Origin: Candidatus Thorarchaeota archaeon
GTDB lineage: Archaea > Asgardarchaeota > Thorarchaeia > Thorarchaeales > Thorarchaeaceae
DNA length: 64,000 bases
Assembly (NCBI GenBank): GCA_048884785.1
Contig: JBHLQM010000004.1
Span: 1 to 64,000 of the forward strand
Direction of reading: 5' to 3'
The notes beneath the pieces were generated by a model. It searched no databases and was not told where the DNA came from. It was given only the letters and a program-made list of their open reading frames with translations. The translations under genes were made by a program, and so were the position numbers. Below, piece after piece: positions 23,255 through 46,729 of this stretch (positions are counted from its first letter, which is position 1; every line of letters begins with the position of its first letter).

Positions 23255-24637
23255 ATGGTATACTATACCGATTCCCCTAAAATCAATAGGCGCCTAGTAG
23301 CGGGTTATTACCTGTTCCTATGCCTCGTTGGTTTCGCGGTACTTCTAGGACCAACCGGTGCCGGCATTCCAATTACTATAATTGGAGCTGACGGCCGTGA
23401 TCACGAGCTAGCAGTTCCAGGGAGTCAAACCGACCCTGCTGTGTGCGATAGTTGTCATTCAAATCAGTATGACAATTGGAGCACGACTGCTCATGCAACC
23501 CATATGGGATCATTTACCAATGGGACTGGTGATTATGTCACCATAGGTTCCCGTAATTACACTGAAACATTCTTCAACGCATCTTGCGCTGAATGTCACA
23601 CTTCTGGCTACAATACGACTGACAAGACGTATGATGCTCTTGGTGTGAATTGTTTTGCATGTCATGACGCAGCAGGCTCTATTGACTACAATGGCACAAA
23701 CTGTGAGAATTGTCACCGCCAGAGCGGACCGACACATCCAAATCAGGCTGCTGCCTATCAGAACTCCAAACACGCTAACTCGCTCGCAGACCTCAGAGCT
23801 AGCGGTCATGCAGGTTCTTCCTGTATGCACTGCATGTCCACTGAAGGATTCATTCACCAGGATGACGACTTCGACCCCAATGATTTGAGTACAAATCCAA
23901 TTGGGTGTCCAGCCTGTCACTCTGTCCACAGTGAATGGTCTGAAGACGGACCTAGCATGATCCGTGCAGTGAACGCCACAGAACTGTGTGGTCTTTGCCA
24001 CGTGGGTTCAAGGCATACTACATACAACATCTTCTATGGTGGTCCTCATCATCTAGCAGGTGTTCAGTGTATCGACTGTCACGGCTATGATCGTGTTAAT
24101 GTTTCTGATCCTAACTCCTACTTCCTCAATCACACCTTCGTTGTAAAGCCAGATCTTGCATGTGGCCAGAGCGATGAGTGCCATGAGGGTATGGAGGAGT
24201 GGGCTCTCAACCAGCTTGAGAGCATCCAGAGCGCATTTGATGCTCTCGTGGATGAGATTACAACTGAGGCTGAGGATCTGTATGACATTGTAGTTGCCTA
24301 CAATGAAACAGATGGTGCTGATCACGATCTAGTAGCTGAAGTCGTAGACATCATTGACTCTGTTGAGCGCGTTGTTACTCAACAGTTAGGTGACCTCTCT
24401 GGTGGATTCCATGATGCACCAGGAATTATGGCCGACCTGAATGGTGCCTACGTTGATCTACTCAATGCAAAAGCCTACTTCTACGAGAATACCCCACCTG
24501 ACACAGTAACTGTCACTGTGACTACCACAACCACAGTCACTGTACCTGGCGGAGATACTCTCTTATTGGTTGGAGGCAGCGTTGGTGGTATCGTCATCGG
24601 TTTGATCCTAGGCGTACTAGTTGGCAGACGCCGCTAG
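23255..24637 (+). CDS. Membrane-anchored exported multiheme cytochrome c (NrfA/c552-like C-terminal helical bundle)
   Basis: N-terminal hydrophobic signal; 7 CxxCH + CMHCM + CGQSDECH; helical region with SGGFHDAP; Thr-rich linker, TM helix, RRR end. Confidence 0.92.
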   Translation: MVYYTDSPKINRRLVAGYYLFLCLVGFAVLLGPTGAGIPITIIGADGRDHELAVPGSQTDPAVCDSCHSNQYDNWSTTAHATHMGSFTNGTGDYVTIGSRNYTETFFNASCAECHTSGYNTTDKTYDALGVNCFACHDAAGSIDYNGTNCENCHRQSGPTHPNQAAAYQNSKHANSLADLRASGHAGSSCMHCMSTEGFIHQDDDFDPNDLSTNPIGCPACHSVHSEWSEDGPSMIRAVNATELCGLCHVGSRHTTYNIFYGGPHHLAGVQCIDCHGYDRVNVSDPNSYFLNHTFVVKPDLACGQSDECHEGMEEWALNQLESIQSAFDALVDEITTEAEDLYDIVVAYNETDGADHDLVAEVVDIIDSVERVVTQQLGDLSGGFHDAPGIMADLNGAYVDLLNAKAYFYENTPPDTVTVTVTTTTTVTVPGGDTLLLVGGSVGGIVIGLILGVLVGRRR

Positions 24638-24668
24638 TTTAGCGAAACAAGAGAATAGTATGGTCGGT

Positions 24669-24699
24669 GGGATGTTCTACATCCCTCCCTTCCTTTTTT
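24669..24699 (+). terminator. Hairpin plus pyrimidine/U-tract after the cytochrome gene
   Basis: GGGATGT-TCT-ACATCCC followed by tcccttcctttttt. Confidence 0.6.
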
Positions 24700-24802
24700 C
24701 TCTAACGAGTTCTGTAGAATATATTGGGTTCTGCTTTTTGACATGTTCTAGTTTCCATTTTTATTAATTTGAAGAACCCACGTAAAAGGTGAAGACACGA
24801 AA

Positions 24803-27007
24803 ATGAAGCATAGATATTCACTGATAATCTCAATAATCGTACTAATGGTACTGGGGAATGCCTTTCCCATTGTATCTAACCATGAAGAAGATCAAATAAT
24901 CGTTCAGGAGAACGGCAATTTTCAAATTGCCCAGGAATACAACATAAGTACCTACCTCCAGTATTCGGATGCCGCTTTGATTATGATGTTGGAAAATCTC
25001 TACAATAGCTCGGACGGGTCACTTTGGCGTTCTGCAGACTACAGGTGGGAAATAATAGACCTCTTGCCAAGTCTTGCAGACTATTATTGGGCAATATCCA
25101 GTCTCGAACGAATGTATGAGGTGTCCGTAGTCGAGGGTGCGCCGAACGCTACTATCTCAGTAATCTTAAGTCGACTCGCAAACAAGATGGTTGAATACTT
25201 CAAGGATGATGCGTATCTTGGGTATATTGTCAATCTCTTTTCGCACCCTGTAGTTCAAACAACAAAACGACCTGGGGTTCAAGCTTATGCATATCAAGCC
25301 TTGAAGATTGCTGAATCAGTGAATAGCTCACTTGATTTCACAGAGGCAAAACAGAGTGCTATTGACTGTCTTGTCGAGATGCTTTATGATTCTCAGTTCG
25401 GAGGATTTCATTTCTTTACAATGAGGAATGGCTCGCTTTCTGTGCCGGGCAACATATTTGAAGTCTATCCAAATGATGGAAAGAGGCTTGATCATCTCGC
25501 TCTTGGTGCAATGGCGCTCTACGAAGCTGGTGTGGAGCAGAACAATGCAACTCTTATTGCTATGGCAAATTCGTCGATGTCTTTTCTGACTCGACATATG
25601 AAGGAGTCATTGCAGGGTAACTATTTCGGTTTGAAATTGGCAGTCAATAGAACGGGACATGACCTTGCAGTCATTGCAGGAACTAGACCAGGGAACACGG
25701 TAGTAAGTGATGTTAATGCAATCGCCATTCGGGCACTACTTAGGGCTTACAATGTAACTGGCAACTCAACCTATCTTGCTTTGGCTGAAACCACAATTGA
25801 TGCACTAATGAATTATAGTTGGGATGACGAGAAAGGAGGATTCTTTGCAGAAACACTATATGGTGAGCCCTTCGACCCGCTTGATGATGAGGATGTGAAG
25901 CTCTACAAGTATTCAGAAATACAATTCCAACTTGTCATTACCATGGAAGAATTGTATGAGCTGACTTCTAACCTATTCTTCATTCGGATTTCAATTGATG
26001 TGCTTGATTTGGTTCTGAGCAGGCTATGGGATGTAGAGTATGGAGGGTTTATTCAGAATGCCAATGGCGATTGGGAATCATTTACAGATGACTGGAAATG
26101 GCATCACACTAGTAATCAAGCGCTTTCAGTTCTTGCATTGCAGAGGATGTGGAGATATGGTCTTCCTATTATCTCCTCAGTCAGGATAAATCCGGTTTCC
26201 CCTAGGCCAACAGATGATGTTTGGGTTTCTGCAACCGCATTGGACAATGATGGAATAGATATGGTATATGTGAATTACACATGTGAAATTGGAGAAGCCA
26301 GTTCAGAGGGTTCACTTCAGCTCGCGCCGAATCCTGAGATTGGAGGTCTGTATAATAGCACGTTTGGCACGTTTAATGATACGGCCAGAGTCAATTTCTA
26401 CGTGATAGCAAATGATACACTTGGGAATGCCTACGTCGCTGGAGTCTATTATTTCATTGTAAGAGCTGACAATTTTGAACCGCTGATAGAGCTGCGTAGA
26501 ATATATCCCGATGTCGTACACGGAGGTGACATTGTTCGGCTTGAGTTTGGTACCTATGAATTTCCAATCCATAGTGCTACATTGTGCTGCACTCTCTATT
26601 GGAAATTGGGGGCCGCGGCATATGCACCTATTAACACAACACTCGTTGGAGTAGACGAAAACAATCTTGTTTGGCAGATAGACCTTGGTCCGTTCCAGGC
26701 AGGCGATGTGATATCTTATTATTGTATGGCTGTTGATGAAACAGGTAATTGGGGGGTTAGCCCCTTCTATAGACTCACCATTACTGATGTCACATATATT
26801 TCGCCACTTGCCGCCTGGCAAATTGTTGCAACAATTGGCCTCGTTTCTGCGCCAGGAGCAGGCGTTGCATACGTTTGGTCAAAGAAGAGGTTCGCACGTG
26901 AACAGCAACGAACGTTGAAGAAAGAGGCCCGCAAGAGAGGTCGTAGAAGTAGAGGAAAGGGCGGATCTCGATCAAGATCTCGCAGTGGATCTGAAGGAGG
27001 TAATTAG
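24803..27007 (+). CDS. Exported (alpha/alpha)6-barrel protein (AGE/GH76/YyaL-like) with Ig-like domains, TM anchor and R/S-rich basic tail
   Basis: Signal peptide; repeated LYD/WD..GGF motifs; beta-rich C-terminal repeats; TM; RKRGRRSRGKGGSRSRSRS. Confidence 0.65.
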   Translation: MKHRYSLIISIIVLMVLGNAFPIVSNHEEDQIIVQENGNFQIAQEYNISTYLQYSDAALIMMLENLYNSSDGSLWRSADYRWEIIDLLPSLADYYWAISSLERMYEVSVVEGAPNATISVILSRLANKMVEYFKDDAYLGYIVNLFSHPVVQTTKRPGVQAYAYQALKIAESVNSSLDFTEAKQSAIDCLVEMLYDSQFGGFHFFTMRNGSLSVPGNIFEVYPNDGKRLDHLALGAMALYEAGVEQNNATLIAMANSSMSFLTRHMKESLQGNYFGLKLAVNRTGHDLAVIAGTRPGNTVVSDVNAIAIRALLRAYNVTGNSTYLALAETTIDALMNYSWDDEKGGFFAETLYGEPFDPLDDEDVKLYKYSEIQFQLVITMEELYELTSNLFFIRISIDVLDLVLSRLWDVEYGGFIQNANGDWESFTDDWKWHHTSNQALSVLALQRMWRYGLPIISSVRINPVSPRPTDDVWVSATALDNDGIDMVYVNYTCEIGEASSEGSLQLAPNPEIGGLYNSTFGTFNDTARVNFYVIANDTLGNAYVAGVYYFIVRADNFEPLIELRRIYPDVVHGGDIVRLEFGTYEFPIHSATLCCTLYWKLGAAAYAPINTTLVGVDENNLVWQIDLGPFQAGDVISYYCMAVDETGNWGVSPFYRLTITDVTYISPLAAWQIVATIGLVSAPGAGVAYVWSKKRFAREQQRTLKKEARKRGRRSRGKGGSRSRSRSGSEGGN

Positions 27008-29104
27008 ATGGATTTTGGAACAATATTATTGATTATCGCTGTGGTTATCGGACTCGTTGATATCACCGTTATGATGATTGGTCCGCGACTCAGTGGCTAT
27101 GAATCGATTTCATTAGGAATGAGTATCATTGCAGGCCTATCGGCTATTGGAGCATTACTTTGGATGGCTGGGTTGATATTTGGTAATCAATTCCAGTATG
27201 AATACGTCTGGCAGACGACTTCAAGTAGTTCAGATACGATGCTGAAGATATCTGCACTCTGGGCTGGAGCTTCAGGTTCCCTACTATTCTGGACAATGCT
27301 CTCATTTGTTCTCTATCTTGGATTTAGAATAACTGCTCGCGGATATGAAGATGATACGATTGTCTATCGGGCGGCTATCATCATGGCAGTTGAATCTGTT
27401 TTGATAGCAATCAATGCAATTCTAGCTGATCCATTTAGGATGATTGAAGGCCTTGGTCCGAGTGAGGGTCTGGGACTGAATCCTCTACTAAGAACATTCT
27501 GGAATGCAATTCACCCGCCAATTGTCTTCATCGCTTATGCTCTCATTATGGTTCCTTTTGCAATAAAGCTAGCAGGATTTACGGTAAGAACTGATGATAG
27601 AAATCAAGACAAGATTCCTATCATCGAGTCTATTTCAAACCTTATGACAGTGCTTGCCTGGGTCATGCTTTCGCTTGGCATTGTGATTGGTGGCTACTGG
27701 GCATACATTGTACTCGGTTGGGGTGGCTATTGGGCCTGGGACCCTGTTGAAACAACATCATTGATACCTTGGCTTTTACTGACAGGGTACTATCACGCAA
27801 AAGCCCTTTTCAGGAAGAATGATGTTCTAAGAGACTCTTTCTTGGTCTTTGCCTTTTTGACTGTGCTGTTTGCCACATGGGTCACAAGGAGCGGAGTATT
27901 GAATTCCGTGCATGGATTCCAAATATCAATTATCAGCTGGACCATGCTGGCAACGTTACTAGGGAACTTCATTGTCGCTACCATTGTGACTTTATGGTCA
28001 GGCTATAGAGATATTGAAGACGATGATGAAGACTCGACAACTTCAGAGGAGGGGAGCAATGAATCTCCTCAGAGAAAAGGACTTCTTGAAACTATTGTGG
28101 GTCCGTCTTTGCGTCGGTTCTCAATCAAACTTGCCCTCCTTGGCATCATTATTGTCACCACTAGCTCGACAATCGGTGTCCTATTGCCTGCTGTTTTGAA
28201 TATTGGAGTCGTCCTGGCTAATCCTAGTGCGCCCATGGAGGAAATGGTATCAGTAGGCCTGGAATTCTTCAAAGCAGGATTCTACTTCAGCACCATTTTC
28301 TTGTTGACATCAGCATTCTATTGTATGGATACATCCTTGATTACAAACAAAGTAAAAGGAATCCTGGTTGCAATTCTGGTGGGAATTGGTGGAATATTGG
28401 GAATCTTGTCGCTTCTTGATACAAATCTGACTCTGCCAACCAACTACTGGCCTGCGAATATCCTGATCCCGATAGCAGTTGGCGCTGTTGCCTACATCGT
28501 GATCGTATTCGTACGAACCATGGCCGGAAAAGAAAAGGGCGTCTTCACCATGAGAAAAATGGGTAGAGTCATGCTGCATATGGGCATGGTGATTCTAATA
28601 CTTGGTGTCTTCATGAGCGAGAATGTCACCTATGAATCAAACGACATGTATCTTCAGGATGATGTGAAGATGATTGGTCCAGGTATTTACCTCATGGTTG
28701 AAGACATAAACCTCCTATACTTCCATGACCAAACGAATTTCAAAATGGTTGTAACGGTTATAGTGATAGAAGGGGACATTGCGGTTGGAATAGGATTTGC
28801 CGTGATTGAAGGACATCCTGAATGGGGGTCTGTTTCTCATTCTGTGTATTTGCAATCAAATGCGGTCAGAGACGTGTTTGTTGCTATTACAGGATTCTCA
28901 CAACCGCTTCCAAATACTCTGGCAGTCACACTCCATGCGAAAGTATTACCATTCGTTTCGTTTGTATGGATAGGATCCTTCTTCATGATTGCGGCAATGC
29001 TACCAATGATTGGTATTGAACTAAGGAATCTGCGAAAGACCGAATCGGGTTCGGAAGATGAGTCAGATGAGCCCCAAAATTTGGAAATCAGGGAGGAGCA
29101 ATAG
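27008..29104 (+). CDS. ccmF: Cytochrome c heme lyase CcmF
   Basis: LWAGASGSLLFW, GLNPLL, IHPP, WGGYWAWDPVE, TRSG..SVH, HMG. Confidence 0.95.
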   Translation: MDFGTILLIIAVVIGLVDITVMMIGPRLSGYESISLGMSIIAGLSAIGALLWMAGLIFGNQFQYEYVWQTTSSSSDTMLKISALWAGASGSLLFWTMLSFVLYLGFRITARGYEDDTIVYRAAIIMAVESVLIAINAILADPFRMIEGLGPSEGLGLNPLLRTFWNAIHPPIVFIAYALIMVPFAIKLAGFTVRTDDRNQDKIPIIESISNLMTVLAWVMLSLGIVIGGYWAYIVLGWGGYWAWDPVETTSLIPWLLLTGYYHAKALFRKNDVLRDSFLVFAFLTVLFATWVTRSGVLNSVHGFQISIISWTMLATLLGNFIVATIVTLWSGYRDIEDDDEDSTTSEEGSNESPQRKGLLETIVGPSLRRFSIKLALLGIIIVTTSSTIGVLLPAVLNIGVVLANPSAPMEEMVSVGLEFFKAGFYFSTIFLLTSAFYCMDTSLITNKVKGILVAILVGIGGILGILSLLDTNLTLPTNYWPANILIPIAVGAVAYIVIVFVRTMAGKEKGVFTMRKMGRVMLHMGMVILILGVFMSENVTYESNDMYLQDDVKMIGPGIYLMVEDINLLYFHDQTNFKMVVTVIVIEGDIAVGIGFAVIEGHPEWGSVSHSVYLQSNAVRDVFVAITGFSQPLPNTLAVTLHAKVLPFVSFVWIGSFFMIAAMLPMIGIELRNLRKTESGSEDESDEPQNLEIREEQ

Positions 29105-29201
29105 GTTACAAATAATCTCTATCTAGACCCTTTCTGCTGACTGTAGGTGTGAAACCGAACATTCAAGAGAGGGTCTTGCATTATTTTTTCTATGCGTTGG
29201 G

Positions 29202-29834
29202 ATGAGTTCAATGATACGCATACTGGGAATTTCGGGGAGTCCACGGACAGGTGGAAACACAACCACGATGGTGAAAGCTGCTCTGAAAGCAGCTGGAAAG
29301 GAAGGCGCTGAAACACGTCTAATTGAACTTGGCGAATTGAGAATTGAGGCATGCAAGCATCAAGCAGAGTGTTATGAACTTGGCAGATGTGTACAAGATG
29401 ATGATCTCAACATGATTGCAAAGGCAATGGATGTCGCTGATGGCATTATTTTTGGATCACCTGCATATACTGCATCCGTGCCGGGTCCGATGAAGAATAT
29501 GTTCGATCGAATCGGAAGATTTGCCAACTTCAGAGGAAAAGTTGCTGCGCCGTTAGTAGTGGGTAGACGATCAGGAATGGACATCACAGCCATTGAATTG
29601 CTATTCTTTATGTATGTGAAGGAGATGATAGTACCCGGAAGTCCATATTGGCCTTCTGGCTTTGCATTGCATGTCGGAGATATACTGGGTGATACTGAAG
29701 CAATGATGGCTGCAGAAGATGCAGGGTATCGTGTTGCGGTACTGGCCAAATACATCAAAGAAAAGCCTCTTCCTTGGATGCAACCTCATCCGAATGGTGA
29801 ATATCGACCAGCTTTCGGAGATGACTGGAGATAA
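29202..29834 (+). CDS. Iron-sulfur flavoprotein/flavodoxin family
   Basis: ISGSPRTGGNT, GSPAY, MKNMFDR; Cys motif CKHQAECYELGRC. Confidence 0.88.
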   Translation: MSSMIRILGISGSPRTGGNTTTMVKAALKAAGKEGAETRLIELGELRIEACKHQAECYELGRCVQDDDLNMIAKAMDVADGIIFGSPAYTASVPGPMKNMFDRIGRFANFRGKVAAPLVVGRRSGMDITAIELLFFMYVKEMIVPGSPYWPSGFALHVGDILGDTEAMMAAEDAGYRVAVLAKYIKEKPLPWMQPHPNGEYRPAFGDDWR

Positions 29835-29896: not shown

Positions 29897-30289
29897 TCAT
29901 GAAGTTGTCGTGGTAGTCGCCTCATACTTACTTGGGCACTGGGCAAGTAACTCAGACGCAATTATCAGGTGTGCTGATTGAAGAAGGCCAATTGCAACTA
30001 TGTCTTGGTCATCAGTCAGGTTGGGTAGTTCTCCCTCAACAAGCACAGTAATGGTATGTTGCTCGCCATAGATAATAAGCGTAATGTTCTCAAGGCCAAG
30101 CGAGAGTGACCCTGGTAAAAGCTTTCCCTTGACTTGAATAGTTCTACCCATATACGCATCAGGATTCTGTACAACAAGGTCAACACTCAGATAGGGATCA
30201 ACAAACATTGTGAGCATGCCATATGATACACCCACAATTGTCACTACAAGTATCGCAGCAATAGCTAATACTCTGGTCCTTTTCTTCAC
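29897..30289 (-). CDS. ccmE: Heme chaperone CcmE, CxxxY (System I*) type
   Basis: N-terminal TM, OB-fold-like core, AQCPSKY. Confidence 0.93.
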   Translation of the reverse strand: MKKRTRVLAIAAILVVTIVGVSYGMLTMFVDPYLSVDLVVQNPDAYMGRTIQVKGKLLPGSLSLGLENITLIIYGEQHTITVLVEGELPNLTDDQDIVAIGLLQSAHLIIASELLAQCPSKYEATTTTTS

Positions 30290-30294
30290 CTAGT

Positions 30295-30432
30295 TCACTC
30301 CTGATCCAAGTTCTGGGTGAATTTCTTCATTTTAGATTCTAGCCTCATCATCCTAACAAACAGGTAGAAGAGGAAAATCAATATTCCGCCCCAAAGGATT
30401 GAAGCCACTGCGAACAATTCTATTTGCTGCAT
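30295..30432 (-). CDS. ccmD: CcmD-like single-TM protein, 45 aa (not in ORF track)
   Basis: MQQIELFAVASILWGGILIFLFYLFVRMMRLESKMKKFTQNLDQE; sits exactly between ccmC and ccmE. Confidence 0.75.
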   Translation of the reverse strand: MQQIELFAVASILWGGILIFLFYLFVRMMRLESKMKKFTQNLDQE

Positions 30433-30433: not shown

Positions 30434-31105
30434 TTACCAACTCCTTGTCAATCTATACTCGGTAAACTTCTCTGTTGCTGAATCAAGACGGTATGTCAAA
30501 TCAAGCAAAACTATGTAGATCAGCGTGATTGCTATTACTGCTACACCCAAAGTCATTCCATGTGCAGCACCCATCTGCAGGCCGCCCGGTGTGACAACAA
30601 TAGGATGCAGCGTATTCCAAATGTGTATAGAGATATAGCTAAGTACAACTGCAGGGAACGCCACGATTCCGAATATTGATCCATATTGAGCCCTGACATC
30701 TCTATCACTGACTGATGCCCTGTATACCAGTAGGCAGGCATATGCTATCCATAGGATAAGAGTAGTTGTTTCTCGCGGGTCCCAATTCCAGGGCGAGCCC
30801 CATGTGGCATCGGCCCATATCATTCCGCTAAGTAGAGTGATTGTTGTGAATAATAGACCCAGCTGAATTGATGCGCCTCCTAAAACATCGTATCTGAGTT
30901 CCTGTTTCCAAAGGTACATCAAACTACACACAAGAGTGACTCCGAATGCAAGATATGCCACCCATGCCGGAGCTACGTGCTGGAAAAAGATTCGGATCAG
31001 TTCGCCAAGATTGAGCTCAGGTGGTGCAAAGATCCATGTCATATAGATGTAGACCACTCCGACGACCGCAGTCACCAGGTATAATATGATTCGTGGTAAC
31101 CTCAC
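30434..31105 (-). CDS. ccmC: Heme exporter CcmC
   Basis: RIFFQHV, WADATWGSPWNWDPRET (WWD domain), WNTLHP. Confidence 0.95.
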   Translation of the reverse strand: MRLPRIILYLVTAVVGVVYIYMTWIFAPPELNLGELIRIFFQHVAPAWVAYLAFGVTLVCSLMYLWKQELRYDVLGGASIQLGLLFTTITLLSGMIWADATWGSPWNWDPRETTTLILWIAYACLLVYRASVSDRDVRAQYGSIFGIVAFPAVVLSYISIHIWNTLHPIVVTPGGLQMGAAHGMTLGVAVIAITLIYIVLLDLTYRLDSATEKFTEYRLTRSW

Positions 31106-31175: not shown

Positions 31176-31850
31176 TCACGTAGTTAGTGCGTAATGAAAC
31201 ACTGTTGCAGATAAAGTGACCATAACAAACATGTGCCCTGCAAGAAGTTCCAGTAGGAAACTGAGTTCAATAATTCCAGGTCCAACAGCAAGTCCACGCG
31301 TTAATTCTACGAGCAATATTAATGCTGACGTTGCAGTTGGAAAGTAGACAAGCGGAAATATTGTCGCTTTGGACTCGGATGGCATGGTCAATGCAGATGC
31401 CATGGAACCAACAGCCGCGAGATCCAAGGTTCCTATTATGAAAGTGGCATATAGCATGGGCTCTAAAAGATTCAGATTGAAACCCAGCAAAGCCATTGTG
31501 ATTGGTATAAGAAATATTTCTACAATCCCCATCAGGACAAATCCATAAATCACCTTTCCAAAATAAACAGCCCATGCAGGGATTGGAGCTATGCTCAAAC
31601 CCTTGAGCGTCCCTGTTTCAACCTCGGACAGAAAGACAGGTGCAAATCCAAACATACCTGTCAGGAATATGATGACCCATAGCATTGCACCTCCAATCTC
31701 AGGATCCACGTCACCACCCATACCAAAGGAAAATGCCAAGACTGCAATGAGGGCAAACAGAAACATAGCAAAGACTTCGAAAGGTCGCCTAATCTGAGTC
31801 AGGATGTCTTTCTTGGCAATTGCTAATGCTGCCGAGATGGAAGATGTCAT
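31176..31850 (-). CDS. ccmB: Heme exporter permease CcmB
   Basis: AKKD..R, EVETGTL.GL, YFGK, six TM; lies between ccmA and ccmC. Confidence 0.9.
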   Translation of the reverse strand: MTSSISAALAIAKKDILTQIRRPFEVFAMFLFALIAVLAFSFGMGGDVDPEIGGAMLWVIIFLTGMFGFAPVFLSEVETGTLKGLSIAPIPAWAVYFGKVIYGFVLMGIVEIFLIPITMALLGFNLNLLEPMLYATFIIGTLDLAAVGSMASALTMPSESKATIFPLVYFPTATSALILLVELTRGLAVGPGIIELSFLLELLAGHMFVMVTLSATVFHYALTT

Positions 31851-38469: not shown

Positions 38470-40191
38470 TCACTTCAGACGTAGCAGTCTGCTAAATCCG
38501 CGTAGTAATGGTATTCCGAGCTTCAACGCTGTGGATAATGAAAGTATGCGAATGAACAAAAATCCTATGATACCACCTAAAATTCCTAGAAAGAATGCAA
38601 TGGGCAATGGAATCGAAGGTATAATTGGATTCCAAAGCAGAGTAGATAGCCATGTCCAGCCAAGAAATTGAGGACCGAATGCTTGGAGAATAACTAGAAC
38701 CGCAAATCCTGATAAAAAGCCAAAAGCTAGAGACTCCTTTGCAGCCTTCACTCTCCCCCCAAAAACCTTAGTCGGATTTACTAGATTTTCTGGGTCGATG
38801 GAGCGCTTTGCACTTTTCAATTTTCGTAGATAGGGTGTCCCGTAAAACTCGTCTGCAAAGGGTACATTCCATAAGGCCACTGCATAGGGCTTTCCTCCAT
38901 GAGTTTTTGCAAGCCTTGCCAAATCGAATGATCTGTACCAACCCAGAGTGTAGGCAATCTTCTTGCGTTCGTCATCAAGTATCCAGACCAAGAAAGATGC
39001 CGCTCCATCTCTGGATATTGTGCCTTCAATTGCTGCATTAGAATTCCTAAGAGCTTTACTTGTGTCCTCAAACATTTCAGGAATGGATTTCAATGGGAGG
39101 ATTGCCTCAGCAGGCACTAGGCTTGGTCCGAGGCTTTTGATCCTGAGAGGGTACAGACGTTCTCGCCAGTAAAACTGACTTCTATTATTGTCTAGCAGAA
39201 TTCCATTATGAGCTTCAACGATGCTTTCAATCTTCTCAACAGCATCCTCAACCTCATACACGATATCCAGTAGAGCCCCTGAGAGTATGAACTTTCCAAA
39301 CTCTGCTTTTCTGATTCGAAGAGATAGTAATTTGGATGAATAGGTATCGGTAAGATATCGAAGATGATAGGGATTCACTTTAGCAGTGATCTCAGCCGCA
39401 GCGGCAACCATGCTAGAAATATCTTCAAATGAGCACGCGAATGATCTAAACATGAGTTTTGGGATTAATCGCAGAGTGACTTTTGTGATGAATCCAAACA
39501 CACCATATGTCTCCATGAAGAGTTGATGGGGATCGATATCTTTTGTATCATCATCTTGCCCAAGTTTAGCATTTAGCCAATCCATTCCTCTTTCTGAATC
39601 CTCGGCAAGTTGGTCTTCTCCACTAAGTACAACCTTCCCAGTTCGTGCAAGCAGTCCGTTAGGAAGCACTACCTCAATCCCTACAACTTGGTCCTTAATG
39701 TTGCCATATTTGGCAGAACCGATTCCGACCCCACCACTAGCAACAAAGCCCCCAACTGTTGCAGCAGCTGCACTCGAAGGATACACCGGAAGTGTCAGTC
39801 CAACCCGTTCGAGGAACATCAGCAACTCTCGCCAAGTTATACCTGCTTCAACTGTTACAAGTAAGTTGTATTCATCAATATGCAGTATCTTTGCCATCTG
39901 AAGCATACTTATGCAAACTCCACCCTTTGTGGGCAATGTCCCTCCCCATCCTGATGTTCCGCTACCCCGTGGAACAACGGGTATCTTTTGCCCCTGCAGG
40001 TATTCGATTAGGTGCATAAGGGATTTTACTGTGACAGGTTGAATGACTAAATCGAACTGACCTGAGATTATTTGATTTGCCATGGGTGGCAGACTCGAAA
40101 TGTCCTTTGCATACAATGTTCTTGATTCAGCATCAGTGGTCACATTATCTGCACCCACAATATCCTCAATCTTCTGAACATTGATTTTCAC
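38470..40191 (-). CDS. FAD-binding (GlcD-like) oxidoreductase with C-terminal TM helices, paralog 2
   Basis: PRGSGTSGWGG, YPSSAAAATVGGF, RLYPLRIKSLGPS, DPENLVNP. Confidence 0.88.
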   Translation of the reverse strand: MKINVQKIEDIVGADNVTTDAESRTLYAKDISSLPPMANQIISGQFDLVIQPVTVKSLMHLIEYLQGQKIPVVPRGSGTSGWGGTLPTKGGVCISMLQMAKILHIDEYNLLVTVEAGITWRELLMFLERVGLTLPVYPSSAAAATVGGFVASGGVGIGSAKYGNIKDQVVGIEVVLPNGLLARTGKVVLSGEDQLAEDSERGMDWLNAKLGQDDDTKDIDPHQLFMETYGVFGFITKVTLRLIPKLMFRSFACSFEDISSMVAAAAEITAKVNPYHLRYLTDTYSSKLLSLRIRKAEFGKFILSGALLDIVYEVEDAVEKIESIVEAHNGILLDNNRSQFYWRERLYPLRIKSLGPSLVPAEAILPLKSIPEMFEDTSKALRNSNAAIEGTISRDGAASFLVWILDDERKKIAYTLGWYRSFDLARLAKTHGGKPYAVALWNVPFADEFYGTPYLRKLKSAKRSIDPENLVNPTKVFGGRVKAAKESLAFGFLSGFAVLVILQAFGPQFLGWTWLSTLLWNPIIPSIPLPIAFFLGILGGIIGFLFIRILSLSTALKLGIPLLRGFSRLLRLK

Positions 40192-41423
40192 GAAGGCGAA
40201 CCCCCCTTTGTTTCATCGAGTGCCTCGGCAACCAGTTCTGATATGCTTTGAACCTGTATTGAATAGTTCATTGTTTGCGTTGCTACATCAAGCGCCTGTA
40301 TGCATCTTGGGCATTCTGTTATTACACGGGATGCAGGCATAATAGAAATGTCTCGAAGCCGCATTTCAGAGATCTGCGATGAAAGTAAAGGGTCTGCAAT
40401 ATTCAGAAGTCCGTGTGTTCCACAGCACCTCGTGTCCTCCTTTGAGTGCAGCATGTCGATATTATACACTCCAGGAATCCTATCAATCACCTCTCTAGGT
40501 TCCTGTATAATCTTCAATGCTCTTGAGGAAATGCACGGATCATGATAGGTCACAGTGATATTGGGCAAATCTCTATAATTCAAAAGTTTCTCGGAATTAA
40601 GTTTCTTGATGAATTGAGAGAGTGTTAAGAGTTCGAATTCACGCTGAAGAGGTACCTTCCAAGATTGGGTGAATGTTATTGGCCAATGGTTTATGCATGA
40701 TGGACAACTAAACACAATTCTCTCAACACCAAGCTCTCTCATCATTGTCAGGTTCTTCTCTCCAAATTCTGGAGCATCATCACGGTTTCCTCCCCATATG
40801 AGGGGCGCGCCACAGCATACTTCTTTCTCACCAAGTAATGTATAATCGATACCTGCATGCTCCATTATTCTGATAACCGATTGAGTCATGCCCTGAAGTC
40901 TTGGTTTCAGGGAAGCGTTACACCCTATGAAGAATGCGGTCTTCGATGGACTCTCAATCCTATCTTTAATATCAATATCTAGGCCTTCTGCCCACAACAT
41001 CCTCGAAGGTGGTCCCATCGAGAACGGGTCTCCGTACTTGAGTACCGATTTACAGGTAAACGCTATAGAGGGTGGTACCAATCCTTCTTTCCACGCAATA
41101 CCTCTCATCAATTCCCAAAATCTATCCAATCTAAGGCTTGTTGTGCAAATTGAAGAGCAATGTTCGCAAAGAGAGCAAAGAAAGAGGTTCCTTACGTATT
41201 CTTCATCAAATCTCTTCTTGCCCTCGAGCACAAGCTTGGTAGTTTGAAGTCTTCCTCGAGGACCATATGCCTCCCAACGAAGCTGTCTGAATGTAGGACA
41301 GACCATTGTGCAATTACCACACGAAGCGCAGATGTATGGATCTGTTTCATGTCCTGTCCCTTCGAGATTTTTCAGACGACTCATCATTGGTCCTCTTCGA
41401 TTGTATCTAGCTATAAGCACCAA
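40188..41423 (-). CDS. HdrD/GlcF-like Fe-S protein, paralog 2
   Basis: CASCGNCTMVCP, CSLCEHCSSIC, CCG..CPSC, HDPC..CCG..CPRC. Confidence 0.92.
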   Translation of the reverse strand: MVLIARYNRRGPMMSRLKNLEGTGHETDPYICASCGNCTMVCPTFRQLRWEAYGPRGRLQTTKLVLEGKKRFDEEYVRNLFLCSLCEHCSSICTTSLRLDRFWELMRGIAWKEGLVPPSIAFTCKSVLKYGDPFSMGPPSRMLWAEGLDIDIKDRIESPSKTAFFIGCNASLKPRLQGMTQSVIRIMEHAGIDYTLLGEKEVCCGAPLIWGGNRDDAPEFGEKNLTMMRELGVERIVFSCPSCINHWPITFTQSWKVPLQREFELLTLSQFIKKLNSEKLLNYRDLPNITVTYHDPCISSRALKIIQEPREVIDRIPGVYNIDMLHSKEDTRCCGTHGLLNIADPLLSSQISEMRLRDISIMPASRVITECPRCIQALDVATQTMNYSIQVQSISELVAEALDETKGGSPS

Positions 41424-41494
41424 GTGTTAGTGTGGAATCTTTTGTCGGTGGCAGCTGCTATCTACCACCGACAATCTATTTTTTTTGGTCGCAA

Positions 41495-42823
41495 TTAAGC
41501 ATAGTCTTGGGTCATTTCCTGAGCACAGGCAATTCCAGACTTGGATGCAGCTTCCATAGAGGCATAATAATGGCCGCAATTGGCATATGCGCCAGCAACA
41601 TAGAGCCCTTTAACTCCGGTGCGGTTGGTCTTGAGCCTCTGAGACATTATTCCAGGTGGTTGTGAGAGCACGGACCTCCAAATCTTCCAGCTCTTCTTCC
41701 AAGTTATCTTTTCTTCAATTCCTGGAATCAGAGTCTTTAGCTCATTCAGGATTTCACGTGTTGCCTCACTATCATCCATCTTTAGTAGATCTTCATCAAT
41801 TGACGTCACAGTAAGTAGTGATTCTCCAATCGGTGCCAAGACCCCTGAAACACGTTTCGCTTCAGCCATTATGTGGATTTTCTTTCCAGGAATAAAGCCG
41901 CCCACATTGAAGTCAAGCACACGTGAGGAAAGACCAAAGTATGCCACAATGGACGGGCGGTACGAAAACTTCCTGACTGCAGATGTGAAGTCACTCGGAA
42001 GCTTGTTCATTTCAACAAAATTCGGAAGCAGATCAATGGGGGTCGTGACAACAACTGCATCGGCATCAACAGTATAGTCTTTACCTTCTTGTTCATACTC
42101 AAGCCCCACAACTTTCCCATCGTCTATGATAACCTGCTTTACTGCACAGTTAACTTTTGGTTCAATGGCGAAATTTCGAGCCTGAAGCATTAGTGTATAT
42201 GGAACACTTCCCAATCCACCTCTTTCAGGATACATTGCTTGAAATCCATCTTCGTAGGCAAACCTCAGTTGCTCCGAGTATAGGTATTGACCAGCAGAAA
42301 CTTGGTCGGGCTTCATGAAAGTGACAGTTCTAATAAGCGGGTCATAGAAATTCTCTTGTATGGACTCTGGGATATGATCCTCTGCATACTCTGAAAATGT
42401 CATCTTATCCAACTCCAAGAAATTCTCCTGAGTTCGTTTGAGGTTTTCCTGAACCAGCCGTCCCAGTGTGACACGTTCAGTTGGTCCTACAAGCCCAAAT
42501 TTGGCAAGATCAACGACCGATTTCCGTATCATATGTTTCTCGCCAGCCTTTAGCCACACTGCTCCTTCTCCTACGACCGTCATGCGGACTCCGCTGCGCT
42601 CAAGTATCGGTATAAGAGACTTGAAACCACCTACAAAGAAGTGAAGTCCTTGGTCAAAGACATACCCCGATTCTGTAAAAGATCTGGCACGACCCCCTAC
42701 AGTCGGTTCCTTCTCAAGGATTGTACATCTGGCTTTCAGCCCTTTTAGCTCAAGTGCACAGCTAAATCCAGCGATGCCTGCTCCTACGATTACAACCCTT
42801 GGTGCCTTTCTTGTGTCGCTCAT
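41495..42823 (-). CDS. FAD-dependent oxidoreductase, phytoene desaturase/HpnE/amine-oxidase superfamily
   Basis: VGAGIAG, EKEPTVGGR, FDQGLH, YPERGG, GLYVAGAY..SMEAASKSG. Confidence 0.85.
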   Translation of the reverse strand: MSDTRKAPRVVIVGAGIAGFSCALELKGLKARCTILEKEPTVGGRARSFTESGYVFDQGLHFFVGGFKSLIPILERSGVRMTVVGEGAVWLKAGEKHMIRKSVVDLAKFGLVGPTERVTLGRLVQENLKRTQENFLELDKMTFSEYAEDHIPESIQENFYDPLIRTVTFMKPDQVSAGQYLYSEQLRFAYEDGFQAMYPERGGLGSVPYTLMLQARNFAIEPKVNCAVKQVIIDDGKVVGLEYEQEGKDYTVDADAVVVTTPIDLLPNFVEMNKLPSDFTSAVRKFSYRPSIVAYFGLSSRVLDFNVGGFIPGKKIHIMAEAKRVSGVLAPIGESLLTVTSIDEDLLKMDDSEATREILNELKTLIPGIEEKITWKKSWKIWRSVLSQPPGIMSQRLKTNRTGVKGLYVAGAYANCGHYYASMEAASKSGIACAQEMTQDYA

Positions 42824-42855
42824 TGATGTTTCCTCGGTTTATTTCATTACTATAT

Positions 42856-43980
42856 TCACTCGCCGACTAATGACGATTGCGCAAGGTCAAGAATCAATTC
42901 GTCGAGTTGAATTACTTCCAGATTCGTATCCCGTGCACAATAGCTGAGATTCTTGAAACAGGATATGCATGTGGTTATAATTCCATCCACTCCTATCTCA
43001 ACAGCTTCAGCCACTCTGTTCTTTCCAATTGACTCTGCAAGATCTGGGTCTATTACACTCACAAAACCCCCGCAACAATTTGAGTTCTCTCGATTGTTTG
43101 GGAGTTCTGTAAATTCAAGCCCAGGAATCGCGTTGATAATGGTTCTAGGTGGCTCATAAATACCCAACGCTCTACCAAGATGGCAAGAATCGTGGAATGT
43201 GTATGACCCCTCTTTTCCTTTAAAGGTAAGTACACCATTGTTTACCATATCTGCAAGAACTTCCACAGTATGATGGATTTTGATGTCAAAATTCTCTATC
43301 ACATGAGGATAATGTTCAGCAAGAGTCCCAAAGCATCCACCACATCCAGTAATTATGTGATCAACTCCTGCTTTCTTGAACATTGAATAGTTCTTTCTGA
43401 TGATGGATTCAAATCCCTCATCATCTCCCGCCCAGTAGTTCATGAGACCACAGCATACTTCGCTGGGAACGTATCCAACATTGACCTTGAGTTTCTGCAT
43501 CATATCTACAACCATCTCAGGTTGATCTGGATACCAGAATGAACCCATGCATCCTGAGAATATTGCCGTGTTGGATTCGGGAGGAAGCTCGAGGTCTTCA
43601 GCCCACACTGTCCTTTCATCTGCCTCAAACCCAACGAAGGGCGTTCCTTCTTTTTTCAGCCATTCGAGCACCTTCATTAGCCCCTCTGATAAGGACCCGC
43701 CTGTTCCTAGAAGATTAGCTTTTGCATCATGCCAAATTGTCGTAACCGGAACTCCAGCAGGACAAATCGCTTCACACCGCCGGCAATCCGCGCAATAGAG
43801 TCTGTTTAAGAGTTCCTGAGGCGGCTTCCTCATCTTCTCAGCATATGCCCTAAGAGCTCTGATCTTCCCTCCAGGACTATCAAGTTCAGAACCAAGTTGC
43901 TTGTACATGGGACAGAAGTCCCGACAGTAATTACATGAGCCACAATGTCTTAGTACATCGGTCTTGAGGTCTACCTTCAT
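42856..43980 (-). CDS. HdrD/GlcF-like Fe-S protein, paralog 1
   Basis: CGSCNYCRDFCP, CADCRRCEAICP, CCG..CGGC, HDSC..CCG..CISC. Confidence 0.92.
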   Translation of the reverse strand: MKVDLKTDVLRHCGSCNYCRDFCPMYKQLGSELDSPGGKIRALRAYAEKMRKPPQELLNRLYCADCRRCEAICPAGVPVTTIWHDAKANLLGTGGSLSEGLMKVLEWLKKEGTPFVGFEADERTVWAEDLELPPESNTAIFSGCMGSFWYPDQPEMVVDMMQKLKVNVGYVPSEVCCGLMNYWAGDDEGFESIIRKNYSMFKKAGVDHIITGCGGCFGTLAEHYPHVIENFDIKIHHTVEVLADMVNNGVLTFKGKEGSYTFHDSCHLGRALGIYEPPRTIINAIPGLEFTELPNNRENSNCCGGFVSVIDPDLAESIGKNRVAEAVEIGVDGIITTCISCFKNLSYCARDTNLEVIQLDELILDLAQSSLVGE

Positions 43981-43986
43981 TTATTT

Positions 43987-45501
43987 TCACCTCGCTACAA
44001 ACTTGCCAAGCCGCCTGAAGGCAGCAGCAAGAACAAACAGAACGTTCATCCTTCCATATGATGTCATGCAGGTGGTTATTCTGTCTGGATTCATAATGTT
44101 TCTCGCGTCCAGAGACGCCTTTCTTTCCTTCATCACGGATTGTCTCTCTGGATATGCCCGTTTCATGTATATTGAATTCTGAAGACCTATGGTATAAGGT
44201 CCTCCTCCTCGTTTGATCGCCCTTTTCATCATTTTATGCAGGATTCCTTTGCTTGAAATGAATTCAAGATATTTGTCAGGATTCAGCATTGCCATAAGTT
44301 CAAGTCGCATCATGCTTGATGTACCAAGCATCCCAAACCATATAGCTGGTACCTTGTGTGTCTTCTTGGTCTTTTCATAGGCTTTCAGGAGGTCGTAGAC
44401 ATGTTCAACACTCACCCAGAGTTCCTGAAACATCAGAGTATGGCAATGCTCCTTTGGATTGAACTCACAATCAAAACGTAGGTCCCATTCCTTCGCTGAA
44501 TACTCGTTTCCGAGGAATGTCCCTCCGCTTTCAGAGACGATTTGTTCGATCTCACTGAGAGGTGCCTTGGAGCTGTTCTCTACATATGAAACCGTTAGAA
44601 CATATCTTCCCTTCTCGAGTGGATTGCTGAAGCTCTGGAAAGGTTGGTCTGCTATCTTGAGATACAGTGGTTTTTGAGTAGTTCCTGAAATACCCCTCAT
44701 GGCGTTACATACATGCTCCAGGTAGGCAAAGCCATAACTCAGGGTGTTGATTCTTGGTGCCAATGGTCGTATCCTAAGCGTTGCTTCAACGATTACGCCC
44801 AAAATACCATACGAAGCATTGTAGATATCGATATCTTCCCCCTCTATTATCGAGATGGATCCGTCAGGCAAAACAACCTTTAGTTGAATGATATTGTCCT
44901 TGAGAGTGCCATATAACGGGGTTCCGATTCCGGCCTTTCCTCCGCACCCGATCCAGCCGCCAACTACGGCTGACTTTGCACTCGAAGGATATATCCCTAG
45001 TTCAAAATTTTGCTTTGCCAATGCTTCGTCAAGAGCAGTGAATGTGACTCCTGGCTCAATAGTGACGGTTCCTTCCTTTGGATTTATTTCAAGAATCCTA
45101 TTCATCCTCTTCAAATCCAAGGAGATTCCTCCCCTTGATGGGCTTGAGGAACCCAGACAACTGGAGGCGCCTCCCCGCGGGATTACTGGAATCTTATGCG
45201 CACTGGCAATTTCTATGATTTCTCTCACATGGTCTGTTGTTTCAACTCGTACTACATAATCTGCTAGATACCTCAACTTCCATCGGTAATGGAACTGTGG
45301 AAGAGCTGCTGGATCTCCACTATAGACAATTCTCTCTAGCTCCATATCTGAGGCGTTTGTGAAACCCACAACACCAGCTAGTTTCTTGAGAATCAGCTCT
45401 TTCTCTGATACTTTGCTGGTCGGAACATCAATGAGTTGCTCTTGGGCCTGTGTTTGTTGAGTTGTACTTTCGTTTTCTTCAGCCATTTTATCACATCCCA
45501 A
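43987..45501 (-). CDS. FAD-binding (GlcD-like) oxidoreductase, paralog 1
   Basis: PRGGASSCLG, YPSSAKSAVVGGW, GILGVIVEATL, DARNIMNP. Confidence 0.88.
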   Translation of the reverse strand: MGCDKMAEENESTTQQTQAQEQLIDVPTSKVSEKELILKKLAGVVGFTNASDMELERIVYSGDPAALPQFHYRWKLRYLADYVVRVETTDHVREIIEIASAHKIPVIPRGGASSCLGSSSPSRGGISLDLKRMNRILEINPKEGTVTIEPGVTFTALDEALAKQNFELGIYPSSAKSAVVGGWIGCGGKAGIGTPLYGTLKDNIIQLKVVLPDGSISIIEGEDIDIYNASYGILGVIVEATLRIRPLAPRINTLSYGFAYLEHVCNAMRGISGTTQKPLYLKIADQPFQSFSNPLEKGRYVLTVSYVENSSKAPLSEIEQIVSESGGTFLGNEYSAKEWDLRFDCEFNPKEHCHTLMFQELWVSVEHVYDLLKAYEKTKKTHKVPAIWFGMLGTSSMMRLELMAMLNPDKYLEFISSKGILHKMMKRAIKRGGGPYTIGLQNSIYMKRAYPERQSVMKERKASLDARNIMNPDRITTCMTSYGRMNVLFVLAAAFRRLGKFVAR

Positions 45502-46729
45502 AGAAGATACCCAGGAACATACCCGTCATTCCCAAAATTGTCCACAAAACCACGGCAGGCAATCCAAGATTGCATGTTTTCCAGCCTGCTATATGAGTGA
45601 GAAAGGCCAACGTACCCAAAATCATACTCACTATTCCAAGCCAAATATGCCAGGAATGAATAAACAATGTCAGATTGGCTACACTGATCAGATATGCAGG
45701 ATTCATGGCGGTCCATGTTGAGGGATCTTCTTGGAAAAGCCAAATGACGTTGATGCTTGTCAGGATATAGGCTATACTGAGCATTATTCCATGCATTCGT
45801 GTGAATCGTTCTTCATCGTAATATTCCAGAGCCGTACCAATATAGGCAATAACCAACGCAGGTCCTCCAAGAAGCCAGCCATAATGCATTTGTGGTAGCG
45901 GTTCAGGTGGGAAATTGCCAACAATGTATTCTTCTTCCCAAGAAACGGATTCAACTCCATCTGTGTCAATTGCTACAATTCTAAAAACGATGTAAGTATA
46001 CAATGGAAATTCGGGAATTGTACCAACATAGTATCCATTACTTAGAGTCATCGATTGATTTGTCCATGTCGATCTATTATCAGTGCTATACTGCAGTTTG
46101 ACCTCACTGATGCCAACCTCGGAGGTTACATTTGTTCGGACTGCGACTGACTCGGTATCAAGAGGAATCAATGGTGTAGCATTGATTAACAGGATTGCAG
46201 GTCCTGCTCCTGGAGGTGGAAGAACAGTTACAGCAATTTGGATACTTATTCCATTAGGTATACCCTGCACCCCAAAAGCCTGAAGTGTATAGGACCCGGG
46301 AGAGGTTGGGGCTGTAATTGTATAATTGACTTCTACTTGGTCAGTATCGGCATCCATATCTGCCGCATCTCCATCATTAACTGTACCCTCAGATCCGAGC
46401 GAACCATAGGTGAACTCGGCATTATCCCCAACTGCTGAGGGAAACTTCAGGGTGAGAGCATTCTCTCCTGTCACACCAACGACTTGAATAACAATGCTAA
46501 AGCTTGCCTCAGTTTCTACGCTTATTGCAGTGGTGGATGCAGAAACACTCATCCCTGATGAGCTATCATGACAAGGGGATGCAGTGCATGCATCGTTTCG
46601 ACTAGGGTATGCCAAAGCTGAACCCGCAAGTAGAACCAAAACAAGAGTAATCGAAGTAATAAGAATTCCATATCGGACTTGCTTCTTCACATTTTTCACC
46701 CGGTTTATGTGGAGACTGTTTGCCAACAA
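45491..46729 (-). CDS. Fusion of exported cytochrome c-like domain (CX4CH), Ig-like domain and cytochrome b561-like four-TM domain (start probably GTG 46690)
   Basis: Signal ..GSALA/YP, CTASPCH, beta-rich domains; C-terminal TMs carrying QMH, RMHG, SWHIWLG, THIAG. Confidence 0.7.
   Translation of the reverse strand: MLANSLHINRVKNVKKQVRYGILITSITLVLVLLAGSALAYPSRNDACTASPCHDSSSGMSVSASTTAISVETEASFSIVIQVVGVTGENALTLKFPSAVGDNAEFTYGSLGSEGTVNDGDAADMDADTDQVEVNYTITAPTSPGSYTLQAFGVQGIPNGISIQIAVTVLPPPGAGPAILLINATPLIPLDTESVAVRTNVTSEVGISEVKLQYSTDNRSTWTNQSMTLSNGYYVGTIPEFPLYTYIVFRIVAIDTDGVESVSWEEEYIVGNFPPEPLPQMHYGWLLGGPALVIAYIGTALEYYDEERFTRMHGIMLSIAYILTSINVIWLFQEDPSTWTAMNPAYLISVANLTLFIHSWHIWLGIVSMILGTLAFLTHIAGWKTCNLGLPAVVLWTILGMTGMFLGIFFGM

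Follow-up and report, generated by a model that had tools for sequence, protein, structure and literature searches.

In sulfate reducers and Archaeoglobus, the Tmc, Hmc, DsrMKJOP and Hme complexes are built on one plan, in which a cytochrome c on the outer face is combined with a subunit embedded in the membrane and an HdrD-like CCG protein in the cytoplasm. In mycobacterial EtfD (Rv0338c/MSMEG_0690; 9OJN), Fe-S and CCG clusters connect a flavoprotein of the cytoplasm with a bis-His haem b and, beyond it, with menaquinone (PMC13083937). OcwA and OmhA are surface cytochromes of Gram-positive bacteria that move electrons outside the cell (PMC6703420). Thorarchaeota, like most Asgard archaea outside Heimdallarchaeia, have been described as anaerobes that live by fermentation or acetogenesis and whose electron-transport chain is incomplete (10.1101/385732), and Helarchaeota have been reported to lack multihaem cytochromes (PMC9723726). 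Here we analysed a stretch of 64,000 nucleotides (the window) from Candidatus Thorarchaeota archaeon (GCA_048884785.1, contig JBHLQM010000004.1, positions 1-64,000), which contains a ~23 kb locus (23255-46729; the island) encoding flavin and Fe-S dehydrogenases, His-rich membrane proteins, exported haem proteins and a Ccm haem-attachment machinery. We conclude that the locus is a real conserved accessory system of some Thorarchaeota. We further propose, with moderate confidence, that it is a transmembrane electron-transfer island, in which electrons would pass from flavin adenine dinucleotide (FAD) to Fe-S/CCG proteins and through a direct haem relay to a surface cytochrome.

The gene inventory of the island was based on a list of open reading frames (ORFs) and on Pfam and NCBIfam scans. 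A preliminary description of this DNA had listed cytochromes, Ccm genes, His-bearing membrane proteins and flavin and Fe-S oxidoreductases, and we recovered every one of these classes at the same coordinates. It had also named an Asgard host; the source names of close homologues, together with Ras-like GTPase and LRR genes in the window, place the DNA in Thorarchaeota. The forward strand of the island carries four genes, which encode a multihaem cytochrome, a 734-residue secreted protein, CcmF and an FMN_red flavoprotein. Convergent to these, on the reverse strand, are the genes for CcmE, a CcmD candidate, CcmC, CcmB and CcmA. A ten-gene operon, also on the reverse strand, runs from 46729 to 34299 with intergenic gaps of -11 to 71 nt, in the order p412, GlcD3, GlcF3, an amine-oxidase-fold flavoprotein, GlcF2, GlcD2, cyt243, mem165, GlcF1 and GlcD1. 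The true starts are probably 46690 for p412 and 38344 (an internal ATG) for cyt243.

The operon encodes three FAD_binding_4 flavoproteins, GlcD1 (34299-36035), GlcD2 (38470-40191) and GlcD3 (43987-45501), and three HdrD-like Fe-S/CCG proteins, GlcF1 (36039-37220), GlcF2 (40188-41423) and GlcF3 (42856-43980). All three GlcD proteins have FAD_binding_4 and FAD-oxidase_C domains; GlcD1 and GlcD2 each end in two extra C-terminal transmembrane segments, and GlcD3 has none. Every GlcF protein matched Pfam CCG (two stretches) and Fer4_8 at E 1e-31 to 1e-36, as is characteristic of the HdrD/GlcF type. Because the GlcD and GlcF proteins all lack a signal peptide, we place them in the cytoplasm. The best solved relative of GlcF1, which contains two 4Fe-4S motifs and two CCG domains, was EtfD (9OJN, E 1.4e-30). 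EtfD has the same set of motifs and domains, and the island would likewise link a cytoplasmic flavoprotein to a small helical part in the membrane that carries His-ligated haem b. EtfD, however, is a single polypeptide with five transmembrane helices, whereas the Fe-S part of the island is a separate soluble protein. The partner flavoprotein is of the GlcD type and not an ETF, and the membrane parts belong to unrelated families with four transmembrane helices (4-TM), one of which is fused to an exported haem-c domain.

The overall plan of the island is also that of the Tmc, Hmc, DsrMKJOP and Hme complexes. GlcF1 showed sub-threshold NCBIfam similarity to TmcB (108 versus 735 bits), HmcF (80 versus 750 bits) and DsrK (59 versus 400 bits), and also to LdhH. 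In contrast to the Tmc, Hmc and Dsr systems, the membrane subunits of the island matched no NarI/HdrE-like family, the GlcF scores were far under the equivalog cut-offs, an FAD dehydrogenase is attached, and the flow of electrons is probably outward. Because GlcF is nearest to EtfD and the overall plan resembles Tmc, Hmc and Dsr, we read the island as a split, flavoprotein-fed version of an EtfD/Tmc-type plan.

The pairing of a flavoprotein that carries FAD_binding_4 and FAD-oxidase_C with a Fer4 and CCG protein is shared with GlcDEF/Dld-type enzymes. The island differs from these in the absence of GlcE, in the extra C-terminal transmembrane helices and in the linkage of the pairs to haem proteins, to which they are presumably coupled. 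The scores of the GlcD proteins (151.5 and 133.7 bits versus a cut-off of 567.9; TIGR00387/PRK11230) and the lack of a GlcE gene in the island do not support membership in the GlcD equivalog or GlcDEF. The closest solved relatives of GlcD1 were D-lactate dehydrogenase, LctD and glycolate oxidase, which makes D-2-hydroxyacids, for example D-lactate or glycolate, the most likely substrates. The remaining dehydrogenase-like gene of the operon encodes the amine-oxidase-fold flavoprotein (41495-42823, reverse strand; Pfam Amino_oxidase; HpnE/phytoene-desaturase-like), which showed the highest conservation in the operon (72-85% identity).

At the head of the operon, p412 (45491-46690, reverse strand) consists of a signal peptide, two beta-sandwich ectodomains and a 4-TM domain; its AlphaFold model showed the two beta-sandwiches and the four transmembrane helices. 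The haem motif of the window protein is CTASPCH, and across 25 orthologues the Cys..Cys-His was invariant with CX2, CX4 or CX5 spacing. Foldseek with the whole protein returned generic Ig/FN3 sandwiches only, and a relationship of the ectodomain to Reeler/'choice-of-anchor V' proteins appeared only as a sub-threshold NCBIfam match (E 0.0018). Among 28 members of the 4-TM family, H282, H313 and H361 were invariant and H358 nearly so; H379 and C386 were restricted to the Thorarchaeota clade. Positive-inside counts placed H282 and H358/H361 at the outer face of the membrane and H313 and H379 at the inner face.

Just 21 relatives of the 4-TM domain were found among 1.8 billion representatives, and the domain matched no Pfam family, even at E up to 10. 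It was modelled as a plain four-helix bundle (pLDDT 89). When this domain alone was used as the query, Foldseek returned nothing below E 0.2, and the Z of the VIA-align matches did not exceed 12.3. With both tools the matches were generic four-helix bundles only, among them cytochrome oxidase subunit III and designed proteins. We conclude that the 4-TM domain of p412 is a new membrane-protein family. The protein had previously been called b561-like, a label that is not supported, as p412 has four transmembrane helices versus six in b561 (with four conserved His on helices 2-5) and PF03188 was among the Pfam families that it did not match. A DUF420 identity, which was an Atlas lead (score 0.78), was rejected for want of Pfam backing at the same permissive E of 10.

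The exported domain of p412 has a free-standing counterpart in cyt243 (37742-38344, reverse strand), a monohaem (CADCH) beta-sandwich protein of ~200 residues with one CxxCH just past the signal peptide, a beta-rich domain, a T/P-rich linker and a C-terminal anchor. The ectodomains of cyt243 and p412 are homologous (BLAST E 4.6e-6). The neighbouring gene encodes mem165 (37234-37731, reverse strand), a 4-TM protein of 165 residues and DUF2231 type, with its N-terminus outside by positive-inside counts and invariant histidines at H4, H9, H11 and H48. The DUF2231 label of the preliminary description applies in a qualified form: mem165 is divergent and its own score was too low (15.2 bits, E 0.022, positions 3-133 of 139), whereas its 70%-identical orthologue P0159 passed (27.3 versus 26.4 bits). 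Homology between mem165 and the 4-TM domain of p412 was considered and rejected (hhalign probability 0.3%). Because the two are not detectably related, the fused-versus-split pattern applies to the ectodomain only. It is the invariant histidines that suggest haem b binding by the 4-TM proteins.

The island begins on the forward strand with a multihaem cytochrome c of 460 residues (23255-24637), assigned to the OcwA/NrfA family from its motifs and from matches to Pfam Cytochrome_C554, c3_2, C7 and C552. Alignment of nine orthologues revealed nine haem-motif positions, comprising seven CxxCH, an invariant CX5CH and an invariant CMHC[M/Q]. The protein has a conserved N-terminal hydrophobic (transmembrane or signal) segment, a Thr-rich linker and a C-terminal transmembrane helix followed by RRR. 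We compared a profile of the nine orthologues with solved structures; the best match was OcwA of Thermincola potens (6I5B, E 1.4e-18), and NrfA (E 1.5e-12) and OmhA (6QVM, E 5.3e-12) also matched. The 6I5B match came in three pieces and spanned motifs 1-9 in the OcwA order, with one motif lacking the proximal His. This is CMHC[M/Q] (23822-23836), which aligned on the fifth CxxCH of OcwA. The position of its proximal His is occupied by Met in 8/9 orthologues and by Gln in 1/9, and the His inside the motif is invariant. OcwA (6I5B) is a nonahaem cell-surface terminal reductase, and its fifth haem is described as a high-spin haem of the active site (PMC6703420).

Besides nine haem-motif positions in the order of OcwA, the Thorarchaeota protein shares with these surface cytochromes a C-terminal helical region and a predicted surface location in an organism that lacks an outer membrane. 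It differs from OcwA in its fifth motif (CMHC[M/Q] and not CxxCH), in its last motif (CX5CH), in the variable spacing of its first motif and in an archaeal-style C-terminal anchor after the Thr-rich linker, and the matching regions are only ~25-30% identical. Homologues at E up to 1e-5 numbered 133, all from Thorarchaeota-type records. Many of the public orthologues (PGAP/NCBI, IMG) are named 'ammonia-forming cytochrome c nitrite reductase subunit c552', that is, NrfA. We rejected this identity: the protein has nine motif positions versus five haems and no CxxCK, and its Pfam C552 match reached 22.7 bits versus a cut-off of 24.1 and covered residues 252-344 only. NCBIfam gave sub-threshold matches only, to other multihaem families. 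The NrfA name is thus likely a mis-annotation of this gene. Because the features that define NrfA are missing, claims of nitrite reduction in Thorarchaeota that rest on this gene need checking.

To follow the island across relatives, we used a panel of 24 genomes of the same family and a panel of 16 genomes of other families. G005 (same genus) and G020 (another genus, 47-86% identity) are fully colinear over the whole stretch between the multihaem gene and p412, with the conserved order multihaem, p734 (the 734-residue protein), CcmF, (FMN_red), CcmE-C-B-A, GlcD1 ... p412. The island of G016 is colinear across two contig ends, and that of G011 is rearranged but lies entirely on one 46.7-kb contig, with five GlcD/GlcF pairs. 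The multihaem gene and CcmF occurred in the same 10/24 family genomes, and full-length p412 and mem165 were present in these ten and also in two genomes that are 60% and 74% complete. The other 12/24 family genomes, all but one at least 90% complete, had none of the four, except for a weak multihaem tail match in G012. All four were likewise absent from the 16 genomes of other families. These presence/absence counts come from related genomes and not from independent samples; the pattern covers five genera. Linkage that was not conserved in relatives had been named beforehand as a reason to abandon the idea of a respiratory island; we found instead that gene order is kept across genera, that presence is shared and that a core module recurs outside the family.

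This genome (G000) also contains a second copy of the island, 50-72% identical and split over contigs C102, C92 and C95, in which the 4-TM protein is a stand-alone 136-residue form without the haem ectodomain, and a third partial cluster on contig C11. Both extra copies keep a module of the 4-TM protein, a GlcD3-like protein and GlcF, and a module of a CxxCH protein, DUF2231, GlcF1-like and GlcD1-like proteins. The GlcD3 gene overlaps or follows the 4-TM gene in every copy, and among the diverged paralogues of this genome the CxxCH/DUF2231/GlcF1-like/GlcD1-like module sits next to ccmA. The second copy is unlikely to be bin contamination, because both types of module share a single contig in G011, and two multihaem genes are present in G016, a genome with 2% contamination; the copies are probably true paralogues. 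The C11 cluster, another 4-TM/GlcD/GlcF set, lies beside a complete complex-I-like operon that lacks NuoEFG and is headed by a 646-residue ORF fusing a GlcD-like flavoprotein to NuoB (C11 positions L042 1763-3703 and L045 6919-18524). The operon may be a 2-hydroxyacid-fed proton pump. Also on C11 is a gene for a 1330-residue secreted protein with an N-terminal CGNCH domain.

With a remote 4-TM relative (P0240) we searched 300 genomes of the phylum. The 4-TM family was present in 34/76 genomes of the Thorarchaeota family studied here, again in the same five genera only, in 19/68 genomes of a second Asgard family and in 3/7 of a third; no other family in this search had it. Five loci of the second family (L056-L060) encode a ~290-residue protein that consists of a signal peptide, a 'CH' motif, one beta domain and the 4-TM domain. 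This fusion gene is directly followed by GlcD3-like and GlcF-like genes, and the module is flanked by CcmF, A, B, E and C. Further secreted proteins (217-955 residues) with the same motif are encoded among the ccm genes. The motif in the second family is usually HxxCH or xxxCH, with a single Cys instead of the two of CxxCH; it may attach haem through a single thioether in these Asgard archaea. The core module of the second family shares ~30% identity with that of Thorarchaeota. Of all the evidence, this recurrence speaks most strongly for the exported domain being a Ccm substrate that acts together with the flavin/Fe-S pair.

From the genes present, their motifs and topology signals, and their conserved linkage and shared presence we infer the cofactors, the contacts, the direction of flow, the substrates and the acceptor of the following pathway. 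Three cytoplasmic pairs (up to five in relatives), each of a GlcD-like FAD protein and an HdrD/GlcF-like protein, would draw electrons from small organic substrates, most likely D-2-hydroxyacids. GlcD1 and GlcD2 would dock to the membrane by helices at their own C-termini; GlcD3/GlcF3 would use the 4-TM domain of p412 as a docking site, and GlcD1/GlcF1 would use mem165. The His-rich 4-TM proteins would carry electrons across the membrane, probably on His-ligated haem b, to the exported monohaem beta-sandwich domains, which are fused in p412 and separate in cyt243. The electrons would then reach the anchored nine-haem OcwA-like cytochrome and an external acceptor. CcmABC(D)EF would attach scavenged haem to the exported proteins. 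Electron flow in the outward direction dissipates membrane potential and would make low-energy oxidations possible. Substrate-level phosphorylation would supply the ATP; an acetyl-CoA synthetase gene next to p412 is consistent with this, but that adjacency is seen only within the genus.

Several observations weigh against this direct relay. The 4-TM domain of p412 has no relation to known haem b proteins that Pfam, Foldseek or VIA-align could detect. Because only one inner-face His is invariant across the wider 4-TM family, a two-haem relay within one p412 monomer is not assured. All GlcD matches fall far under the equivalog cut-offs and so do not fix substrate specificity, and the missing haem-synthesis genes described below imply that all haem would need to be imported from outside. 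The MenA-like gene, polyprenyl synthase and complex-I-like operon beside the third GlcD/GlcF cluster on C11 make a lipid-soluble carrier possible. The GlcD/GlcF pairs might then be ordinary membrane-bound substrate:quinone oxidoreductases like GlpC, LdhH, GlcF and EtfD, with the 4-TM and DUF2231 proteins as quinone-reducing anchors and a quinol pool, and not a direct haem relay, reducing the exported cytochromes. EtfD, the nearest solved relative, does end in menaquinone (PMC13083937), the C11 prenyltransferase narrowly passes its model (TIGR00751, 105 bits versus a cut-off of 102), and its neighbours include an IdsA-like polyprenyl synthase and a geranylgeranyl-reductase-like gene. We nevertheless consider a quinone route unlikely. 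MqnA and MenB were not found in the genome, no known quinol dehydrogenase (NapC/NrfH/CymA or bc-type) was noticed in the island, and in two Asgard families the 4-TM domain comes fused with a haem-c ectodomain, for which reason we favour direct electron hand-over. Reversal of the direction, with electrons from a partner cell, reduced minerals or the product of an external hydrogenase or formate dehydrogenase reaching the cytoplasmic CCG proteins for reduction, appears improbable. In its favour, Tmc, Hmc and Dsr, to which GlcF1 has its sub-threshold similarity, likewise pair an HdrD-like CCG protein with a membrane protein and a cytochrome c on the outer side, and inward flow would conserve energy as a redox loop. 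However, each CCG protein is paired with an FAD_binding_4 flavoprotein whose characterised relatives oxidise 2-hydroxyacids, and we saw no gene for a DsrC-like or heterodisulfide-type acceptor in the island.

The chance that the Ccm/multihaem unit and the flavin/Fe-S operon are mere neighbours without a common function is very small in our estimate. An opposite-strand LRR gene separates the two units in this window, and in several relatives they lie on different contigs. Yet their presence and absence are identical across the family, they are adjacent on the same strand in three genera (G005, G016 and G020), Ccm genes again flank the core module in the second Asgard family, and the operon itself encodes two Ccm-type substrates. 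The nature of the acceptor is a separate matter that fits either electron route. There is some possibility, although we doubt it, that the multihaem protein reduces a soluble substrate (nitrite, hydroxylamine or a sulfur oxyanion) and not minerals or a partner cell. In keeping with such a role, PGAP and IMG label the orthologues as c552 nitrite reductase, the protein matches Pfam C552 in part and the NrfA profile as well, and the unusual CMHC[M/Q] sits at the position of the high-spin active-site haem of OcwA. OcwA itself slowly reduces nitrite and hydroxylamine (PMC6703420), and a review that cites Liu et al. 2018 counts Thorarchaeia among the possible reducers of nitrite or nitrate (PMC12806544). 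The nine haem positions in place of five, the lack of CxxCK, the higher score of OcwA over NrfA, the membrane or surface anchoring of the protein at both ends and the absence of an NrfH or NrfBCD partner from the island all argue against it.

A maturation machinery of the island's own had been proposed, and the sequences bear this out: CcmA, B, C, E and F all scored above the Pfam cut-offs, the WWD motifs are present, and there is a CcmD candidate, as in System I Ccm. CcmF, the System I haem lyase (27008-29104, forward strand; Pfam Cytochrom_C_asm, 6e-27), carries the WWD motif GYWAWDPVE and HPP/SVHGF-type histidines. On the reverse strand, CcmC (30434-31105; Cytochrom_C_asm, 3.3e-29) has the WWD motif WGSPWNWDPRE, CcmB (31176-31850) matched Pfam CcmB at 1.9e-19, and CcmA (31862-32551) is an ABC ATPase (Pfam ABC_tran). 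Translation of the gap between ccmC and ccmE (30295-30432, reverse strand) gave the CcmD candidate, of 45 residues with one transmembrane helix and a basic tail. The haem chaperone CcmE (29897-30289, reverse strand; Pfam CcmE, 7.9e-12) is of the Cys type, with CPSKY instead of HxxxY, so that a Cys (CxxxY) replaces the His of System I. The Cys variant of CcmE is the archaeal and Desulfovibrio type. No thioredoxin-like (CcmG) or CcmH gene was present among the ORFs of the island.

The host also differs from the usual System I setting in haem supply. Searches of this genome, which is 91% complete, found no ALAD, HemC, ferrochelatase or AhbD, and ALAD was detected in only 1/24 genomes of the family, an 80%-complete bin of 670 contigs. 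Because these synthesis genes were not found although a full Ccm set is kept, haem, and probably all tetrapyrroles, would be scavenged.

Inside the ccm cluster, between ccmF and ccmE, lies a gene for an NADPH-dependent FMN-reductase-family flavoprotein (29202-29834, forward strand; Pfam FMN_red, 3.8e-33). It has this position in most relatives (G005, G020, G004, G023, G011 and the second copy on C92), and the protein might supply reductant for haem handling. A C-x5-C-x5-C stretch is also found in it. The secreted 734-residue protein (24803-27007, forward strand) is encoded between the multihaem gene and ccmF in 8 loci. It consists of an (alpha/alpha)6 AGE-epimerase-like barrel, beta domains, a C-terminal anchor and an extremely basic tail; it gave weak C5-epimerase and cellobiose-epimerase matches, and its Atlas model matched AGE-family barrels with a TM-score of 0.75-0.82 by target.

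The LRR-repeat gene (33000-33920) lies between ccmA and GlcD1 in this genome only, on the strand opposite to its neighbours. It is a lineage-specific insertion outside the system, because ccmA directly follows GlcD1 on one strand, at 59-85 nt, in G005, G016 and G020. We set the borders of the island at 23255-46729 because the flanking genes are not conserved; the one exception, limited to the genus, is an ADP-forming acetyl-CoA synthetase gene beside p412. The alpha subunit of this enzyme is encoded at 48559-49980. On the other side, an Asgard-typical Ras/Roc-family small GTPase gene is located at 18650-19183 of the window. No compositional signature of recent transfer was detected, as the GC content of the island (0.44) is the same as that of the flanks. 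A scan for sigma-70 promoters and terminators did no better than on shuffled sequences, with a model that is unsuited to archaea.

The preliminary description had called the island undescribed, and for the island as a whole this stands: our literature search found no paper describing it. For the multihaem gene it does not, as the gene carries a public NrfA name and a review mentions nitrite or nitrate reduction by Thorarchaeia as a possibility (PMC12806544). The principle of wiring a flavoprotein through an HdrD-like protein and a membrane haem to an outer cytochrome c is already known. The novelty lies in the membrane families, in the way that one of them is fused with an exported haem domain, in the presence of several input modules and in the lineage of the host. 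A broader reading, which we put forward as speculative and rather unlikely, is that two or more Asgard families share a quinone-free relay of haem groups from flavoproteins to the surface, built from unrecognised membrane families and handing electrons directly to minerals or partner cells. It would consist of a 'CH'-motif beta-sandwich fused to a His-rich 4-TM bundle, with a single-Cys HxxCH-type motif in one family, matured by an archaeal Ccm system in haem-auxotrophic cells.

If the proposed pathway is correct, it would extend the repertoire of Thorarchaeota to anaerobic respiration or direct interspecies electron transfer, and it would explain how lactate-type substrates could be oxidised without NAD-linked sinks. 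The island points to new membrane-protein families and possibly to a non-canonical haem-attachment motif, and it provides a concrete gene set for cultivation attempts. Should the relay prove to be quinone-free, it would give a physical basis for syntrophic electron transfer in models of eukaryote origin.

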